A stretch of 64,000 nucleotides of DNA, taken from assembly GCA_022843945.1 (NCBI GenBank), contig JALHMR010000023.1:7941-71940 (forward strand), given 5' to 3'. The position numbers were made by a program, and so were the translations under genes. Source of the DNA: Rhodospirillaceae bacterium. Its GTDB lineage: Bacteria > Pseudomonadota > Alphaproteobacteria > CACIAM-22H2. Under the pieces are notes generated by a model. That model saw only the letters and a list, made by a program, of their open reading frames with translations. It was not told the DNA's origin and made no database searches. Below are positions 22,616 through 30,785 of the stretch, piece after piece. The stretch's first letter is position 1. Each line of letters opens with the position of its first letter.

Positions 22616-23416
22616 TCAGTCGAGCGCGATAACGCGCGTATCGCCGGGCAAACGGTCCAACTCCGCCCTCTCGGCGGCGTCCAGCGCAAAATCGAAAATC
22701 TCGAGATTGGCGCGCAGATTGGGCTCGCGCGTTGCCTTGGGGATGGCAGCGACGCCGGGCTGCTGGACGAGCCAGCGCAAGGCGACCTGCGCGGCCGTCT
22801 TGCCGTGCCTGGCGCCGATCCTGGTCAATACCCCATTGTCGGTGAGCTGCCCGCGCGCCAGCGGGCAATAGGCCACCACCGCCATGCCGTGACCACGGGC
22901 GTAGTCGAGAATCGGCCGCTGGTTGAGCAGCAGGTGATATTCCACCTGGTTACAGGCGATCGGCGCCTTGTGCTTGGTCAGCGCCTCGGTCATCTGGCCG
23001 ACCGAGAAATTGCTGACGCCGATGGCCCTGGCCTTTCCGGCCTCCTTGAGCTTCATCATGGCGCCCAGGGTCTCGGCCAGCGGCACGGTGGTGTTGGGCC
23101 AGTGGATCAGCAGCAGGTCGACGTAGTCCGTCTTCAGTTTCCGGCGCGACGTCTCGGCCGTGGGGCCGACATCCTGGGCGCGCAGATGGTTGGTCCAGAT
23201 CTTGGTCGTGATGAAGAGCGATGCGCGGTCCACGCCTGATGCCTGGACGGCGCGGCCGATCTCCGCCTCATTGCCATACATCTCCGCCGTGTCGATATGC
23301 CGGTAGCCGAGATCGAGCGCCAGGCGCACGGACTTCTCGCAGGCGGCCCCCGAGAGTTGCCAGGTCCCCAGGCCCAAGGCCGGCATCTTGGCGCCCTGAA
23401 TGTCCACGAACAGCAT
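22616..23416 (-). CDS. Aldo/keto reductase (2,5-diketo-D-gluconate reductase-like)
   Basis: Start at ATG 23416 after GGGAGG. It has MPALGLGTW, GYRHIDTAEMYGNE, DLLLIHWP and IPKATREPN motifs typical of AKR-family enzymes. Confidence 0.85.
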   Translation of the reverse strand: MLFVDIQGAKMPALGLGTWQLSGAACEKSVRLALDLGYRHIDTAEMYGNEAEIGRAVQASGVDRASLFITTKIWTNHLRAQDVGPTAETSRRKLKTDYVDLLLIHWPNTTVPLAETLGAMMKLKEAGKARAIGVSNFSVGQMTEALTKHKAPIACNQVEYHLLLNQRPILDYARGHGMAVVAYCPLARGQLTDNGVLTRIGARHGKTAAQVALRWLVQQPGVAAIPKATREPNLRANLEIFDFALDAAERAELDRLPGDTRVIALD

Positions 23417-23499
23417 AGGAAATCCTCCCGCCAGGGCCGGCACTGTAGCGCAAAAAGCGGGCTTGCTGCAGTGCGATACCGCCTATAGCATCCGGCCCC

Positions 23500-24180
23500 A
23501 TGGCTGAATTCAACCAAGACGACCGCACCCTCTCGCGCCTGCTCGAGAATAATCGGGCCTGGGCCGAGCGTATCAGCACCGAGCATCCCGGGTTCTTCGA
23601 GAAGCTGGCGAAGCAGCAGGCGCCCGAGGTCCTGTGGATCGGCTGCTCCGACAGCCGCGTCCCGGCCAACGAGATCATCGGCATGATGCCGGGCGAGGTC
23701 TTTGTCCATCGCAACGTGGCCAACCAGGTCATGCATGTCGATTTCAACTGCCTGGCCGTCATCCAGTACGCGGTTGAGGCGCTGCGCGTGAAGCACGTCA
23801 TCGTCTGCGGCCACTACGGCTGCGGCGGCGTCAAGGCGGCGCTCCGGCGGCACGAGCTCGGCCTTCTGGACAACTGGCTCTATTCCATTGCCGCGATACG
23901 CGACAAGTACAAGACCAAGATCGAGGCCGCGGGCAAGGATTCCAGCACCGACGTGCTCTGCGAGCTCAACGTGATCGAGCAGGTGCACAATGTCTCCAAC
24001 ACCTCGATCCTGCAGCAGGCCTGGCGCCGGGGCCAGGACATCGCCGTCCATGGCTGGATCTACGGCATCAATGACGGCCACCTTCACGACCTCAACGTGA
24101 CCGTCGCCTCGCCCGACGACGTGGAGCCGATCTTCAGCGCCGCGCTTGCCGGGCCGCGCCTCGCCAACCGGAAAAAATAG
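23500..24180 (+). CDS. can: Beta-class carbonic anhydrase (Can/CynT type)
   Basis: 226 aa. The zinc-ligand motifs CSDSR and GHYGCGG are present, and it is similar to E. coli Can-type enzymes over the whole length. Confidence 0.9.
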   Translation: MAEFNQDDRTLSRLLENNRAWAERISTEHPGFFEKLAKQQAPEVLWIGCSDSRVPANEIIGMMPGEVFVHRNVANQVMHVDFNCLAVIQYAVEALRVKHVIVCGHYGCGGVKAALRRHELGLLDNWLYSIAAIRDKYKTKIEAAGKDSSTDVLCELNVIEQVHNVSNTSILQQAWRRGQDIAVHGWIYGINDGHLHDLNVTVASPDDVEPIFSAALAGPRLANRKK

Positions 24181-24181
24181 G

Positions 24182-25156
24182 ATGCGGTGGTGGGGGCGGT
24201 TTACTGCGGCATTGTGGATGCTGCTGGCGGCCGTCTGCTCACCGACGCCAGCCGCCGCCCAGCCCGAGGAGGCCAAGATCGGCCTCTATCTGACGGCGCT
24301 GAGCGGCTTCAACCTGGGCGCGGGCACCTTCAACGCGGACTTCTGGCTGTGGAGCAATACGCGCTCCGCGAAGCTGACGCCGCTCGACACGCTCGACATC
24401 GTCAACGCCGCTTCGCGGCAGGGTGAGCTCCTCGGGTCACGGCGGGTCGATGGCATCCGTTGGGATCAACAACGGGTGCGCATTACCGCGCGCAACAATT
24501 TCCAGGCGTATCATTTCCCCTTCGATAGGCAGACGCTGCAGCTGATCTTCGAGGACAGTTTCCTGTCCACCAAGGATCTGGTCTATGTCGCGGACCACGA
24601 AAACTCGCGCGTCTCAAGGGCTCTGAACATCCCGGGCTGGAAGGTGCTGGGCTGGAACCTCGCCATCACGCAGCATGACTACATCACCAATTTCGGCGAC
24701 CCTGTAACCTCTGGGCCGACGCCGGTCTCGCGGCTGGTCTTCTCCGTGGATATCGAACGCACGGGGCTCGACGAATTCATCGAGCTGACGCTCGGCGCTT
24801 TCGTGTCTTTCGCCATCCTGGCGCTGAGCTTCCGGATGAATCCGACACTGCCGCCGATCTTCGCCGGTCGCATGGGCGTGATCGTGGCCAGCGTCTTCAC
24901 CGTGGTAATCAGCCTGCGCAGCGCCAACACGGTGACATCCCTGCCGGTCGGCGCGACCCTGGTCGACAGGATCCATCTCTGGACATTGGCGGCGGGGTTT
25001 GCCGCCGCGGTGGCCGCCGCCGCGGTCCGCTACGTGGCGGAGTCCGGGCACGAAGCCAAGGCGCTGGCGGCCGATCGCTGGATTATGCCGGTCTACATCG
25101 CGGTCTACGTGGTGATCGTGACGGTCATGATCGTCGCGGCCGTGCTGCCGGATTGA
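24182..25156 (+). CDS. Prokaryotic pentameric ligand-gated ion channel (Cys-loop receptor superfamily) homologue
   Basis: Start at ATG 24182, 1 nt after the can stop. It has a signal peptide (ALWMLLAAVCSPTPAAA), a beta-rich ectodomain with FNADFWLWSNT and the Cys-loop-equivalent signature YHFPFDRQTLQLIFE, pre-M1 VDIERTG, four TM helices, and an M2-M3 SLPVGATLVDRIHLW segment resembling the LPxxxYxxxID motif. Confidence 0.65.
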   Translation: MRWWGRFTAALWMLLAAVCSPTPAAAQPEEAKIGLYLTALSGFNLGAGTFNADFWLWSNTRSAKLTPLDTLDIVNAASRQGELLGSRRVDGIRWDQQRVRITARNNFQAYHFPFDRQTLQLIFEDSFLSTKDLVYVADHENSRVSRALNIPGWKVLGWNLAITQHDYITNFGDPVTSGPTPVSRLVFSVDIERTGLDEFIELTLGAFVSFAILALSFRMNPTLPPIFAGRMGVIVASVFTVVISLRSANTVTSLPVGATLVDRIHLWTLAAGFAAAVAAAAVRYVAESGHEAKALAADRWIMPVYIAVYVVIVTVMIVAAVLPD

Positions 25157-25161
25157 GCCGT

Positions 25162-26130
25162 TTACTGCTCGATCTTGATGTTGGCCGCCTTGGCCACGGT
25201 CGTCCAACGCTCGATGTCGGCAGAGATCACCTTCGCGAATTCCTCTGACGAGCTGGCCGAGGGCTCGACCGACAGGCCGAGCAGGCGGTCATGGACCTCC
25301 GGCAGGCGCAGCACGCGCCGGGCCTCGGCCTCGAGCTTGCGCACGACCGGCGCCGGCGTGCCGGCCGGCGCGAAGATGCCGCTCCACAGGCCAACCTCGG
25401 CGTTCGCCACGCCGGCTTCCTGCAGCGTCGGCAGATTGGGGAAGTCGGGAGAGCGCCTGGCCGAGGTCACGGCGAGCGCACGCACCTGGCCGCCGCGGAT
25501 GTGGCCGGAGACCGCCGGCGCATCGACGATGCTCATGATCACTTCGCCCTTGATCACCGCGGTCACGGATTCACCGCTGCTCTTGTAGCCGATGTATTCC
25601 AGCGGCGCGCCGGTGCGGATCTTGAACAGCTCGGTCGCCAGCTGGAAGGCCGGCGACGAGCCGGCGTAGTTGGCCTTGCCCGGATTGGCCTTGGCGAAGG
25701 TCACGAGGTCCTGGACCGTGCCCAGCGGCATGGTCGGGGTGGCGACCACGAACAACGGGAACGAGGCGATCATGGTGATCGGGATGAAATCGCGGCGTGT
25801 GTCGTAGGACAGGCGGGTATAGATCGCCTGGTTGATCGCCATGGCCCCGCTGGCGCCGATCAGCAGCGTGTAGCCGTCGGGCGGCGACTTGGCCACGTAT
25901 TCAGTGGCGACCACGGCACCGGCGCCGGGCTTGTTCTCGACGACGACCGGCTGGCCGAGCGCTTCGCCGAGCTTCGTGTTGAACAGCCGGGCAAGGATGT
26001 CGTTGCCGCCGCCGGCGGCAAAGCCGACGACCAGGCGGATCGGTTTGCTGGGGTAGTTGTCCTGTGCCTGAACGGCCGTGGAGCCCAGCAGAGTGGCGAC
26101 GGCGAGCAGAGTCGTGCCGATGATCTTCAT
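25162..26130 (-). CDS. Bug/TctC-family tripartite tricarboxylate transporter substrate-binding protein (orphan)
   Basis: 322 aa with a signal peptide ending AQA. It has PIRLVVGFAAGGGNDILARL and ENKPGAGA motifs. Confidence 0.85.
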   Translation of the reverse strand: MKIIGTTLLAVATLLGSTAVQAQDNYPSKPIRLVVGFAAGGGNDILARLFNTKLGEALGQPVVVENKPGAGAVVATEYVAKSPPDGYTLLIGASGAMAINQAIYTRLSYDTRRDFIPITMIASFPLFVVATPTMPLGTVQDLVTFAKANPGKANYAGSSPAFQLATELFKIRTGAPLEYIGYKSSGESVTAVIKGEVIMSIVDAPAVSGHIRGGQVRALAVTSARRSPDFPNLPTLQEAGVANAEVGLWSGIFAPAGTPAPVVRKLEAEARRVLRLPEVHDRLLGLSVEPSASSSEEFAKVISADIERWTTVAKAANIKIEQ

Positions 26131-29555: not shown

Positions 29556-29717
29556 GGGTCATCCTGGGTTCGAGAGGGGTAGTCCGGTCGGCCACTCTAT
29601 TCGCATTGGGGGTGTTGCGGAACTTGTCACGGCGTCCCACGCGAACCGGCACGATATCCGTCGTGGGACGACTCTTTTCACCCGCTGGCGTTGCCGCGGG
29701 CACCCTGGAGACCGGAA

Positions 29718-30785
29718 ATGGGATACGCGCGCCACGACGACCGCCTGGCCTGGGTCGACTACGCCAAGGGCATCTGCATCGTCGCGGTGGTCTGCATGTA
29801 TGCCGGCTACTACGTCCAGCCGGCCGAGGGCGGCGGGGCGGGCTGGATGCAGCTCTGGATGGACTTCGCGCGGCCCTTCCGCATGCCGGATTTCTTCCTG
29901 CTCGCCGGCCTGTTCCTGGCGCGCACCATCGACCGGCCGTGGCGCGAGTATCTCGACAAGAAGGTCGTCCACTTCGCCTATTTCCTGGTCCTCTGGACGA
30001 CGATCTACTTCGTCGCCGAGGCGCTGCTGACCCGCAACCTCGCCGGCGGCACGCCGCTCTGGCTGCAGTACCTGGCCTGGCTGACCGTCGACCCGTACCA
30101 CATGCTCTGGTTCGTCGCGATGCTGCCGGTCTACTTCCTGGTGACGCGGGCCGTGCGCGGCGTGCCGTGGTGGATCATCCTGCCGCTCGCGGCCTTGCTG
30201 CAGATCGCCGCCTTCGAATCCGGCTGGCGCCATTTCGATCGTTTCGGCGAGCGCTACGTCTACTTCTACGCCGGCTACGCCTTCGCGCCGCTGGTCTTCC
30301 AGTTCGCCGACTGGGTGCGCGAGAACAAGGGCAAGGCGCTCGGCCTGCTGGCGCTCTGGGCAGTGGTCAACGAAGGCTTCGTTCTGGCCCGCCTGCACGA
30401 GGCGCCGGGCCTCAGCCTGGTCCTGGGCTTTGTCGGGGTCGGCGGCGTGATCGCCGTCGCAGCCCTGCTCCAGGATACGCGTCGGATGCAGTGGCTGCGC
30501 TATCTGGGCCGCAATTCGATCGTTGTCTTCCTGGCCTTTTATATCCCGATGGTGGTGGCGGCGAAGCTGCTCTGGCGCTTCGGCCCGCCGCTCGATCTCG
30601 GCACCCAGGCACTGGTGATCACCATCGCCGCCATCGTCGTGCCGGTGATCGCCTACGCCGTGCTGCGCCACTCCCCGGCGCGGATCCTGTTCGAGCGCCC
30701 GCGCTGGGCCCAACTCGGCAGTGTCCGTCAGCCGGCTAAAACGCGGCAGGAACCCGTGTTCGGCGCCCAGCCTTCGGCGTCCTGA
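29718..30785 (+). CDS. Acyltransferase-3 (OpgC/OafA-like) family membrane protein
   Basis: Start at ATG 29718. The N-terminus is RLAWVDYAKGICIVAVV, with RMPDFFLLAGLF and about 10 hydrophobic helices. Confidence 0.7.
   Translation: MGYARHDDRLAWVDYAKGICIVAVVCMYAGYYVQPAEGGGAGWMQLWMDFARPFRMPDFFLLAGLFLARTIDRPWREYLDKKVVHFAYFLVLWTTIYFVAEALLTRNLAGGTPLWLQYLAWLTVDPYHMLWFVAMLPVYFLVTRAVRGVPWWIILPLAALLQIAAFESGWRHFDRFGERYVYFYAGYAFAPLVFQFADWVRENKGKALGLLALWAVVNEGFVLARLHEAPGLSLVLGFVGVGGVIAVAALLQDTRRMQWLRYLGRNSIVVFLAFYIPMVVAAKLLWRFGPPLDLGTQALVITIAAIVVPVIAYAVLRHSPARILFERPRWAQLGSVRQPAKTRQEPVFGAQPSAS

Follow-up and report, generated by a model that had tools for sequence, protein, structure and literature searches.

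Why should the gene for what looks like a ligand-gated ion channel of the pentameric class (pLGIC) begin one nucleotide after the stop codon of a carbonic anhydrase (CA) gene? The question is raised by a 64,000-nucleotide stretch of DNA from a Rhodospirillaceae bacterium (contig JALHMR010000023.1; the whole stretch is hereafter the window), for which a sequence-only reading had proposed a beta-class CA translationally coupled to a pLGIC homologue. The neurotransmitter-receptor field leans heavily on the prokaryotic pLGICs GLIC, ELIC, sTeLIC and DeCLIC for its structural work. In unicellular organisms no pLGIC has a known biological role (PMC4795631), and the physiological role of the N-terminal domain of DeCLIC is still open in a 2026 preprint (10.1101/2025.02.27.640520).

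The gene pair and its surroundings

The CA open reading frame (ORF) occupies positions 23500-24180 of the forward strand (226 aa, stop TAG) and the channel ORF, which encodes a membrane protein, positions 24182-25156 of the same strand (324 aa, start ATG). The junction between them, TAG-G-ATG (24178-24184, forward strand), was read directly and contains a single intervening nucleotide (G, 24181). Both ORFs thus lie where the sequence-only reading had placed them, and each of the motifs it had listed (CSDSR, GHYGCGG, FNADFWLWSNT, YHFPFDRQTLQLIFE, VDIERTG and SLPVGATLVDRIHLW) is present in the translations. Neither is a chance ORF: the CA is vouched for by its Pfam and NCBIfam scores, and the channel by 13 relatives with E-values from 1e-183 to 1e-24. 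A longer reading of the channel from a TTG at 24146 was rejected, as homologues begin at the aligned M-R-R, in which M1 and R3 are nearly invariant. The tight spacing fits translational coupling, and the pair is probably expressed as a single transcript with coupling of this kind.

Upstream, 56 nt (23444-23499; ORF map) separate the CA gene from a divergent aldo-keto reductase gene (22616-23443, reverse strand; ORF map), and this interval is presumed to be the promoter region of the pair. A promoter scan of 23444-23499 returned no sigma-70-like match and an alignment of upstream regions revealed no motif conserved past the closest relative. Promoter and terminator scans otherwise gave nothing useful, and Rfam nothing. 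A cyanate (cynTSX-like) context was dropped, since no cyanase lies in the vicinity and the scores mark the CA as an equivalog of Escherichia coli Can; the ORF map and gene neighbourhood contain no carboxylase gene near the pair. Elsewhere in the window, positions 29691-30785 encode an acyltransferase-like membrane protein. A neighbour with Hexapep repeats at L001 is a possible gamma-CA-like protein and is not syntenic in the window.

The membrane protein is a divergent pLGIC

The most direct test of channel identity, proposed with the original reading, was a search with the Pfam models Neur_chan_LBD (PF02931) and Neur_chan_memb (PF02932). This test fails: both models are absent at E<=1, and scans of Pfam and NCBIfam return only noise (NHL, 0.064; chorismate mutase, 0.19). 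Relatives of the channel reach just 13-21 bits against the Pfam pLGIC models, for which the cut-off is 26, and a few distant family members have a precomputed PF02931 match. The Pfam models being blind to this protein, its assignment rests instead on profile and fold evidence.

A single-sequence comparison of the window channel with established pLGICs is marginal (E 0.003). A profile built from 14 family sequences, searched against the PDB, matches a chimera of the GLIC extracellular domain (ECD) and GABA-A alpha1 over its full length (E 1.3e-11), native GLIC at approximately 1e-7 and the honeybee RDL receptor at 5.6e-8; matches to GLIC and to GABA-A/GlyR chimeras span E 1e-11 to 1e-7. An AlphaFold2 model of the channel (pLDDT 82, pTM 0.71) has an N-terminal helix, a beta-rich domain of some 10 strands and four long helices at residues 196-218, 226-252, 260-287 and 291-321. 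When this single-chain model was compared to the PDB using Foldseek, the top match was GLIC (E 6.5e-18 to 1e-16, TM 0.72-0.79, about 320 aligned columns), among 1106 matches at E<=1e-3. The full-length profile match to solved pLGICs (1.3e-11) and the GLIC-like predicted fold (approximately 1e-17) together bear out the proposed homology and run counter to the possibility, raised at the outset, of a different beta-sandwich membrane protein. Among Pro-loop pLGICs the window channel is divergent and its ectodomain short; it is predicted to form a homopentamer.

The resemblance is not uniform along the protein. A profile restricted to the transmembrane domain (TMD) finds no pLGIC in the PDB; resemblance of the TMD to anionic receptors is therefore weak (chimeras gain about 12 bits in the full profile), and we make no claim of kinship between the two at the sequence level. 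The family to which the channel belongs is large, with 568 representatives (50% identity) at E<1e-30, and the member records that were seen carry the label 'hypothetical protein'.

Ectodomain and transmembrane helices

All features described here are on the forward strand. Residues 1-26 (24182-24259; ...PAAA/QPEE) form a predicted Sec signal peptide, on the basis of the hydrophobic N-terminal helix (residues 3-18 of the model, at low pLDDT) and of the family alignment, in which the N-terminal segment is variable and is followed by a conserved P-x-A-x-P-E. A lipoprotein reading of A-V-C19 was set aside, since the family does not conserve the Cys and Val occupies the -1 position.

The short beta-sandwich ectodomain comprises residues 27-193 (24260-24760), as delimited by the modelled strands and by alignment to GLIC, in agreement with the beta-rich domain of about 170 aa that had been recognized from the sequence. 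Relative to GLIC the alignment shows a deletion of approximately 20 residues between beta2 and beta3. Landmarks include W57, the Pro-loop, G152-W153, a loop-C region with Y167..N-F171-G172-D-P, and the pre-M1 R193. The Pro-loop, F112-P113-F114-D115 in the beta6-beta7 loop (24515-24526), aligns to YPFD of GLIC, as its earlier designation as the loop-7 signature implied, and also, in GlyR and ELIC chimeras, to FPMD/FPFD; P113 and D115 show no variation among 49-220 family members. No cysteines flank this loop in ...NNFQAYHFPFDRQTLQLIFE..., and the protein is not a Cys-loop receptor in the metazoan sense; other prokaryotic pLGICs likewise have no Cys-loop cysteines (PMC4795631). R193 (VDIERTG), proposed as the pre-M1 Arg, aligns to the Arg of GLIC ...RISRQ and is invariant in the family.

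Four long helices follow, as anticipated. M1 (residues 196-218; 24767-24835) aligns to M1 of GLIC and of GABA-A alpha1, and M2 (226-252; 24857-24937), the pore helix, is continuous in the model. M3 (260-287; 24959-25042) is preceded by the M2-M3 loop S-L-P-V-G-A and carries L260, D262 and H265, which are conserved across the family. The modelled link between M3 and M4 (291-321; 25052-25144) is only 3 residues long, so the channel has no intracellular domain.

The enzyme is a Can-type carbonic anhydrase

The partner gene presents no comparable difficulty. Its product matches Pfam Pro_CA at E 1.2e-52, scores 280 bits against the E. coli Can equivalog model NF007756 (cut-off 251) and aligns with E. 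coli Can (1i6o) over residues 11-219 on 4-212 at E 4.8e-77. It is a Can-type (type II) beta-carbonic anhydrase, and as it carries no recognizable signal peptide it is predicted to be cytoplasmic. The channel-linked CAs of L004, L035, L071 and L079 also exceed the NF007756 cut-off (273-288 bits). The zinc ligands and catalytic dyad (C49, D51, R53, H105 and C108) are invariant in 9/9 channel-linked CAs, as are W46, R71 and Y188. We take these last three to be W39, R64 and Y181 of E. coli Can, the triad of the allosteric bicarbonate site; the offset of 7 agrees with the 1i6o alignment.

The pairing recurs in two clades

The arrangement in the window is not peculiar to one genome. Here, as in all five relatives examined from the same clade (clade 1), the CA gene lies directly upstream of the channel gene and shares its strand. 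These relatives are 45-67% identical to the window in the channel and 67-89% in the CA. The six gaps are +1, +1, +1, -4, -4 and +17 nt; in relatives the junction reads TAG-C-GTG (+1), is an overlap of GTGA or ATGA (-4) or, in one case, spans 17 nt. The genes outside the pair vary (TctC, PhoD-like and others) while the pair itself stays.

A survey of gene neighbourhoods, as the initial reading had suggested, extends the association beyond this clade. Clade 2 comprises channels 26% identical to that of the window (BLASTP E 9e-36), and in 4/5 of its lineages the channel gene is followed, at a distance of 9-24 nt, by a Can-type CA gene, the reverse of the order in clade 1. The four CA-bearing lineages are 41-70% identical among themselves. 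One of them (L071/L043) has an additional beta-CA with a Tat motif upstream of the channel, whereas the remaining clade-2 member (P0183/L078) has neither a CA nor a CA remnant at the locus. For the window, the earlier argument stands that any coupling would have to proceed by way of ion flux or local pH, the enzyme being cytoplasmic and the ectodomain periplasmic; in one lineage of clade 2, however, a periplasmic CA is encoded in addition.

When 220 family members are placed in a neighbor-joining (NJ) tree, bootstrap support is 98-99% for clade 1 and 100% for clade 2, and the two form a single clan in just 0-1% of replicates; that is, they are not sisters. The pairing has apparently evolved twice. 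Over both clades the gap ranges from -4 to +24 nt, and no channel-CA fusion was seen.

Outside these clades no CA was found: none at the nearest clade-1 outgroup examined (P0020), none beside the 8 additional relatives for which a gene map was read, none in the vicinity of plasmid-borne relatives in Azospirillum and Streptomyces, and none at 57 other family loci, of which 34 have at least 600 bp of upstream and 32 at least 600 bp of downstream sequence. The distant loci were found using a hand-built degenerate DNA pattern, which favors GC-rich members with FPFD[R/S][Q/H]...FGDP and recovered no clade-1 metagenome members. In the 67 flanking ORFs, no Pfam family apart from Pro_CA occurs more than twice. 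The CA-linked clades are themselves rare, with 13 (clade 1) and approximately 25 (clade 2) sequences among 5.8 billion clusters; a scan of genome contigs found only one alphaproteobacterial MAG (clade 1) and Streptomyces gamaensis. Most of the family being without a CA, the enzyme is not needed for channel function in general.

These distributions bear on a rival explanation, namely that there is no mechanistic coupling: a channel of unrelated function has lodged beside a housekeeping can gene and is co-expressed and co-inherited with it. The gene is indeed a common housekeeping one, both CA-linked clades are narrow as well as rare, the CA is missing from one member of clade 2 and from the closest outgroup of clade 1, and across clade 1 the identities of CA and channel drop together, as in vertical co-inheritance; within-clade conservation of the pair could partly reflect operon inheritance. 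Such an origin is harder to reconcile with adjacency in two clades that are non-sister in 99-100% of NJ bootstraps and have opposite gene orders, with spacing held within narrow limits, with persistence of the pair as outer flanks change, with the addition of a third, exported CA in one lineage, and with the lack of any other family recurrent beside these channels. We judge it rather improbable. The recurrent pairing points to a CO2- or bicarbonate-linked job for this class of pLGIC.

Chemistry of the pore

What, then, might the channel conduct? The loop between M1 and M2, with the cytoplasmic mouth of the pore, M-N-P-T-L-P-P-I-F-A(-2')-G(-1')-R230(0') (24836-24871, forward strand; alignment), has no acidic residue, and its A-G-R aligns to P-A-R of GlyR and GABA-A alpha1. 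Prime numbering was taken from alignment to M2 of these receptors, in which R230 falls on R0' and F239 on L9', the 9' residue thus being Phe and not the usual Leu. By helical periodicity the lining comprises G232 (2'), A236 (6'), F239 (9'), I243 (13'), R246 (16') and T250 (20'); R246 and the other lining residues are predicted to face the pore, an orientation which for R246 comes from this periodicity and not from coordinates.

The two CA-linked clades share a profile of A/S at -2', G at -1', R at 0', G at 2', A at 6', F at 9' and R at 16', so that both lack an acidic -1' and have Arg at 0' and at 16'. Some of this is general to the family, since members without a linked CA have Arg at 0' in 163/180 cases and Phe at 9' in 171/180. 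The 16' Arg is different: it occurs in 15/15 clade-1 and 24/25 clade-2 channels, but in only 62 of the 180 others. P224, P225, F227, G229 and M231 are likewise common to both CA-linked clades and rare elsewhere in the family.

A pore without an acidic -1' residue and with Arg rings at 0' and 16' would favor anions, bicarbonate included. To our knowledge, every prokaryotic pLGIC characterised to date (GLIC, ELIC, sTeLIC and DeCLIC) is cation-selective. M2 motifs have been deemed insufficient for predicting selectivity in prokaryotic pLGICs (PMC4795631).

The channel could instead be a sensor, cation-conducting or weakly selective and gated by periplasmic pH, by CO2 or bicarbonate, or by another small ligand, in the manner of GLIC or sTeLIC, with the CA shaping stimulus or response: it might, for instance, buffer the pH of the cytoplasm once protons or cations have flowed in, or fix the bicarbonate level locally. 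The bacterial pLGICs known so far conduct cations and respond to pH or to small amines. ELIC is a case in point (PMC3119659), chemoreceptor roles were predicted by earlier genomic work (PMC549065), and one member of the present family, in Azospirillum, sits in a CheW-MCP-MscS gene string. Moreover, Y..NFGDP in the loop-C region is conserved family-wide, beyond the CA-linked clades, which suggests a common ligand or gating site independent of CA. Two observations weigh on the other side: the pore is devoid of the acidic ring found at -1'/-2' in cation-selective members and has Arg at 0' and 16', and an arrangement in which the channel is flanked by CAs encoded for the periplasm and the cytoplasm fits a permeant CO2-derived species better than a generic sensor. 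On balance we regard a sensor of this kind as unlikely.

Anion preference itself is unreadable from sequence, and the channel might carry chloride, nitrite or formate, or not conduct at all, its link to CA then being indirect. The 9' Phe and 16' Arg rings could give a narrow or permanently closed pore, and there is neither a cyanase nor a carboxylase gene nearby to narrow the substrate. Against this, CA yields only CO2, HCO3- and H+, and the complete four-helix TMD with its conserved M2 argues for a functional pore; we give the idea little credence.

A proposed function

The reading we favor, tentatively and at somewhat less than an even chance, is that the channel is a gated, bicarbonate-permeable anion channel that serves, together with the cytoplasmic CA, the homeostasis of pH and inorganic carbon. 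Given a membrane potential that is negative inside, bicarbonate would leave the cell whenever the anion pore opened, and CA would continually remake HCO3- and H+ from CO2. The pair would carry a potential-driven efflux of bicarbonate, the protons being kept in the cytoplasm, and this efflux could ease alkaline stress or bicarbonate overload and could also lift the inhibition of type II CA by bicarbonate. In the clade-2 lineage with the Tat-exported CA, bicarbonate that has left the cytoplasm would come back into equilibrium with CO2 in the periplasm. Candidate gating stimuli are periplasmic pH, bicarbonate or a small ligand. The venting of bicarbonate opposes the usual role of Can, which is to supply bicarbonate in air; tight gating would thus be needed.

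A bolder version holds that these are the first anion-selective, bicarbonate-conducting prokaryotic pLGICs and that they form a working unit, possibly a physical complex, with CA on the cytoplasmic face. The residues common to both CA-linked clades do cluster at the cytoplasmic face of the channel, and we consider this version possible, if somewhat doubtful. No prior description of a CA-pLGIC pairing was found in the literature searched, in line with what the sequence-only reading had stated.

Comparison with known systems

GLIC, ELIC, sTeLIC and DeCLIC share with the window channel their fold and topology, the F/YPxD Pro-loop, the pre-M1 Arg, four transmembrane helices and a minimal M3-M4 link, and are alike in having no Cys-loop disulfide and no intracellular domain. 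The window channel differs from these proteins in an ectodomain shorter by about 20-25 residues, in its 9' Phe and 16' Arg, and in the A-G-R that replaces the acidic selectivity ring; its identity to solved pLGIC structures is only 15-20%, below Pfam detection. For none of the four was a CA encoded in the same unit reported in the literature searched.

Acid acclimation in Helicobacter pylori depends on urease and involves a periplasmic alpha-CA and a cytoplasmic beta-CA. The presence of CAs on both sides of the inner membrane recalls the clade-2 cluster that encodes a channel along with a periplasmic and a cytoplasmic CA, but H. pylori has no dedicated channel gene between its CA genes and its periplasmic enzyme is of a different CA class.

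A parallel in genome organization is found in can-sulP pairs and SulP-CA fusions (M. tuberculosis Rv3273; A. ferrooxidans can2-sulP), in which a cytoplasmic beta-CA likewise lies beside a membrane anion transporter; this microsynteny and these fusions have been read as bicarbonate transport, possibly pH homeostasis (PMC6458275). The juxtaposition is present here, in two clades, but the partner is a pentameric, passive, gated channel and not an SLC26/SulP secondary transporter, the gene order differs between clades, and fusions were not seen. As the partner has a pLGIC fold, the pair is an analogue of can-sulP modules and not a member. DAB (DabBA) and MpsAB also couple a CA-type protein to a membrane ion translocator in order to move or trap inorganic carbon (10.1101/476713, PMC8552792, PMC13144422). 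Their CA-like subunit is, however, dedicated and non-canonical, sits on a NuoL/Mrp-like cation translocator and drives uptake, whereas the present pair combines a standard Can equivalog with a passive channel.

The proposed logic is that of neurons, in which GABA-A receptors pass bicarbonate outward and cytosolic CA replenishes it, so that the current is depolarising and the cell interior is acidified (PMC12292292, PMC10831359). The likeness to GABA-A and glycine receptors includes the alignment of A-G-R with P-A-R. In neurons the coupling is physiological and involves no genetic linkage; here the linkage is genomic and the physiology a prediction, and there is no Cys-loop.

Significance

A large pLGIC family, mostly overlooked by annotation pipelines, is now flagged. 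For one of its subfamilies the CA pairing provides a concrete hypothesis, cheap to test, about which ion permeates (bicarbonate or another anion) and which physiology to examine (CO2 and pH shifts). If true, these channels would be the first anion-selective prokaryotic pLGICs and a model for the pores of GABA-A and glycine receptors, and the pair would join SulP-CA, SbtA, BicA, DAB and MpsAB as a bicarbonate pathway of a new type in bacteria. The logic by which a neuronal channel and CA sustain a bicarbonate current would then have a bacterial counterpart, and bicarbonate and proton homeostasis driven by the membrane potential would be the first physiological role for any bacterial pLGIC.

Organization of the two-gene unit

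The carbonic anhydrase (CA) gene (23500–24180, + strand; 226 aa, TAG stop) and the channel gene (24182–25156, + strand; 324 aa, ATG start at 24182) are separated by a single nucleotide: the TAG of the first is followed by one G and then by the ATG of the second. Both open reading frames lie where the sequence-only reading had placed them, and all motifs quoted in it are present in the translations. A divergent aldo-keto reductase gene lies upstream on the opposite strand, 56 nt from the CA gene; downstream, a TctC-family gene, also on the opposite strand, converges on the channel gene. The two converging stops (channel TGA, 25154–25156; TctC-family stop, 25162–25164) are separated by 5 nt, with no terminator-like hairpin between them (25154–25164). 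Because both neighbors are encoded on the opposite strand, CA and channel form a stand-alone bicistronic unit. Scans of the unit for a sigma-70-like promoter, a terminator and Rfam elements were all negative; across the window (1–64000) nothing reached the Rfam gathering score, and no second copy of a CA or of a pLGIC (pentameric ligand-gated ion channel) is present within the 64 kb.

Judged by its sequence, the product of the upstream gene is a standard beta-CA of the E. coli Can type, cytoplasmic in location. It matches Pfam Pro_CA (E 1.2e-52), NCBIfam NF007756 (280 bits, cut-off 251) and E. coli Can itself (1i6o; E 4.8e-77). The zinc-binding and catalytic residues C49, D51, R53, H105 and C108 are conserved, as are W46, R71 and Y188, which we take to be W39, R64 and Y181 of Can, the allosteric site for bicarbonate in enzymes of type II; the offset of seven between the two numberings is borne out by the 1i6o alignment.

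The second protein as a divergent pLGIC homologue

The two Pfam models by which the sequence-only reading proposed to recognize a pLGIC, PF02931 and PF02932, give no match to the 324-aa protein at E≤1, nor does an NCBIfam scan. A single-sequence search barely reached chimeras of the bacterial channel GLIC (E 0.003). A profile built from the 14-member family of the window protein and searched against the PDB matched a GLIC-ECD/GABA-A alpha1-TMD chimera (E 1.3e-11, aligned over 24–311), a second GABA-A alpha1 chimera (6cdu; E 8e-10), a GLIC/GlyR chimera (E 2.7e-9), the honeybee RDL receptor (E 5.6e-8) and native GLIC (E about 1e-7). In these alignments FPFD pairs with YPFD, R193 with the pre-M1 Arg, and A-G-R230 with the P-A-R of anionic receptors. 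An AlphaFold2 model from the family alignment (pLDDT 82, pTM 0.71) places an N-terminal signal-like helix before a beta-sandwich, which is followed by four long helices, M3 and M4 being linked by three residues; Foldseek retrieved GLIC and animal pLGICs from the PDB (best E 6.5e-18, TM 0.72–0.79; 1106 matches at E≤1e-3). Profile and predicted fold together bear out the pLGIC assignment: the protein is, from sequence and model, a divergent Pro-loop pLGIC, putatively pentameric and conducting. It is without the Cys-loop disulfide and the intracellular domain, and a deletion between beta2 and beta3 makes its ectodomain shorter than the GLIC ectodomain by some 20–25 residues.

The predicted relatives of the channel are a large bacterial subfamily: an exhaustive profile search recovered 3988 representatives (50% identity) at E<1e-3, and 568 at E<1e-30. 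Its hallmarks are DFWxW, FPFDR[HQ], GW, Y-x-T-N/T-FGDP and the pre-M1 R in the ectodomain, and R-x-G-x-L-V-G/A-x-L-F...N/S-x-R in M2. Pfam misses most of the family, and members are annotated as 'hypothetical protein'. Sel1/TPR repeats are a second recurring association: some members carry a fusion to six Sel1 repeats, or their genes come immediately after those of Sel1/TPR repeat proteins (P0031, 872 aa; L080 1821–4871; L082 3916–4623). On Azospirillum sp. B510 plasmid pAB510b (L084 3782–8633) genes for CheW, an MCP and an MscS-type channel come after that of a 'hypothetical protein' member on the same strand, a context suggesting that another branch has a use linked to chemotaxis. In Streptomyces gamaensis (JBHSPB010000003.1; L006 3949–5771) P0014, a distant member (28% identity) without a CA, is encoded 229 nt downstream of genes for a PLP-dependent decarboxylase (PF00282) and a GNAT acetyltransferase; this decarboxylase family yields CO2 and an amine, which brings the amine-gated ELIC to mind.

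Conservation of the pairing in two clades

The window channel and its close relatives (clade 1) are a tight and rare group, the window channel plus 13 others among 5.8 billion clusters, from alphaproteobacterial MAGs where the source is named and otherwise from metagenome contigs. In every clade-1 relative with a readable contig (5/5) a Can-type CA lies directly upstream on the same strand. Channel identity to the window and the junction are 67% and TAG-C-GTG, +1 nt, for P0005; 57% and +1 nt for P0007; 48% with a GTGA overlap (−4 nt) for P0009; 48% with an ATGA overlap (−4 nt) for P0010; and 47% and +17 nt for P0013. CA identity declines alongside, from 89% to 67%, while the outer genes vary (TctC in one, a PhoD-like protein in another, others elsewhere). 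The nearest examinable outgroup, P0020, is without a CA.

A scan of metagenome contigs with a degenerate DNA pattern gave 66 loci, 61 of which encode family members (21–37% identity). At four of the 61, comprising two lineages of 70% mutual identity, a Can-type CA 55–57% identical to that of the window lies directly downstream of the channel, in reverse of the window order. A further homologue search enlarged this second clade to about 25 sequences, including P0187 and P0099 (63% and 41% identical to the channel of locus L035), both with the channel first and the CA following after 19 and 9 nt, respectively. A third, P0183 (52% identical to the L035 channel; L078 5001–6571), has neither a CA nor, by tblastn, a remnant of one; a 636-nt stretch without a called gene follows its channel gene, the CA having been lost or never present. 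In the L071/L043 lineage an additional same-strand gene, encoding a 269-aa beta-CA with the twin-arginine motif RRNFLKLLG, lies upstream of the channel (L071 2062–2868, − strand, by 238 nt; the same gene is in L043). The cluster thus would read exported (periplasmic) CA, channel, cytoplasmic Can-type CA, export being predicted from the motif.

Two further features accompany the pairs. Aldo-keto reductase genes lie beside or near them in several otherwise unlike contexts and in varying orientation (window 22616–23443, −; L001 4439–5245, −; L004 4326–5267, +), and also near the CA-less P0183 (L078 2721–3695, +); this may be chance. Clade-1 CAs carry a basic C-terminal tail, A-x-x-x-x-P-R-L-x-x-R/K (window 24130–24177, CA residues about 211–226; equivalents in L001, L004, L009 and L010), not found in clade-2 CAs, and its coding sequence overlaps the stretch that must hold the ribosome-binding signal of the channel.

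Is the linkage selected?

At the 57 other family loci no CA was found, with at least 600 bp of upstream sequence available in 34 and at least 600 bp downstream in 32. Gene maps of seven further relatives (P0014 of S. gamaensis, P0061, P0185, P0183, two Streptomyces plasmid copies and Azospirillum sp. B510) likewise show none. Among 67 ORFs next to family channels, tallied by Pfam family, Pro_CA alone was seen more than twice; all five occurrences are in clade 2. A neighbor-joining tree of 220 members, a rough guide only given how divergent the sequences are, supports clade 1 at 98–99% and clade 2 at 100% of bootstrap replicates, and joins the two as a clan in just 0–1%; the smallest clan containing both holds a median of 27 other sequences. 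The pairing could also have arisen just once, long ago, and then have undergone an inversion and several losses. The adjacency extends beyond this genome, to all five readable clade-1 relatives and, in reversed order, to clade 2, and the linkage looks selected, not accidental. Co-inheritance of the two genes with no mechanistic coupling between their products is unlikely in our estimation.

The pore and a possible mechanism

By classical determinants, an acidic ring at −1' confers cation selectivity and P-A-R anion selectivity. Numbered from HMMER alignments to GlyR and GABA-A M2, the pore of both CA-linked clades has A/S at −2', G at −1', R at 0' (R230), G at 2', A at 6', F at 9' (F239), I at 13' and R at 16' (R246), with acidic residues absent from the M1–M2 loop. 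The 16' Arg occurs in 15/15 clade-1 and 24/25 clade-2 sequences versus 62/180 in the remaining family, where Q or Y is usual. On these determinants the predicted pore is of anion type, R246 being a predicted pore-facing residue. PMC4795631, where the determinants are summarised, warns that the charge-selectivity motif is insufficient in prokaryotes, and a TMD-only profile found no match in the PDB. That the protein conducts an anion other than bicarbonate, or does not conduct, seems to us decidedly improbable.

Residues common to both CA-linked clades and rare elsewhere (P224, P225, F227, G229, M231, R283 and E287; window 24851–24874 and 25028–25042, channel residues 224–231, 283 and 287) cluster on the cytoplasmic face, where they might form either a selectivity filter or a surface for docking. 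Part of this motif is present in the nearest outgroups, and so we treat the cluster as a lead, not as evidence of docking. A pH- or ligand-gated sensor channel, the signal of which is shaped by the CA, is a rather unlikely reading.

We incline, tentatively and at somewhat less than even confidence, toward a gated, bicarbonate-permeable anion pore, and infer every step of what it would do. By the Nernst relation, a membrane potential of about −120 mV (inside negative) would hold a monovalent anion at equilibrium when its internal concentration is roughly 1% of the external one, so that opening of the pore would mean bicarbonate efflux. Hydration of CO2 by the cytoplasmic CA would keep the efflux going, and the net outcome would be H+ retained on the cytoplasmic side together with a depolarising current. 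Such a flux could plausibly relieve alkaline stress, vent excess bicarbonate, or free the type II CA from inhibition by bicarbonate; with the exported CA of L071, bicarbonate would be re-equilibrated in the periplasm.

Relation to known systems

GABA-A receptors and cytosolic CA show such CA-sustained bicarbonate efflux in neurons (PMC12292292, PMC10831359), and the likeness lies in the proposed efflux, H+ retention and depolarisation. Functionally, the nearest parallel is with the conserved can-sulP microsynteny and with SulP-CA fusions, which have been interpreted as serving bicarbonate transport or the homeostasis of pH (PMC6458275); since a pLGIC is not a SulP protein, the window pair is analogous to that family and does not belong to it. 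The uptake systems DAB and MpsAB, which couple CA-like subunits with cation translocators (10.1101/476713, PMC8552792, PMC13144422), are unlike the window pair in both components. Partners noted earlier in bacterial pLGIC neighborhoods are PBP-II, Cache and a Na+/H+ symporter, CA not being among them (PMC549065), and a full-text literature search returned no paper connecting a prokaryotic pLGIC with a carbonic anhydrase.

As far as sequence analysis can reach, these data support the proposal of a CA translationally coupled to a pLGIC homologue as a CO2-, bicarbonate- or pH-linked module; it is strengthened because the second clade reverses the gene order and the three-gene variant encodes CAs for both sides of the membrane. 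The pair would join known kinds, the pLGIC and the module of a CA plus an anion pathway, and its function is a hypothesis that is sharply testable.
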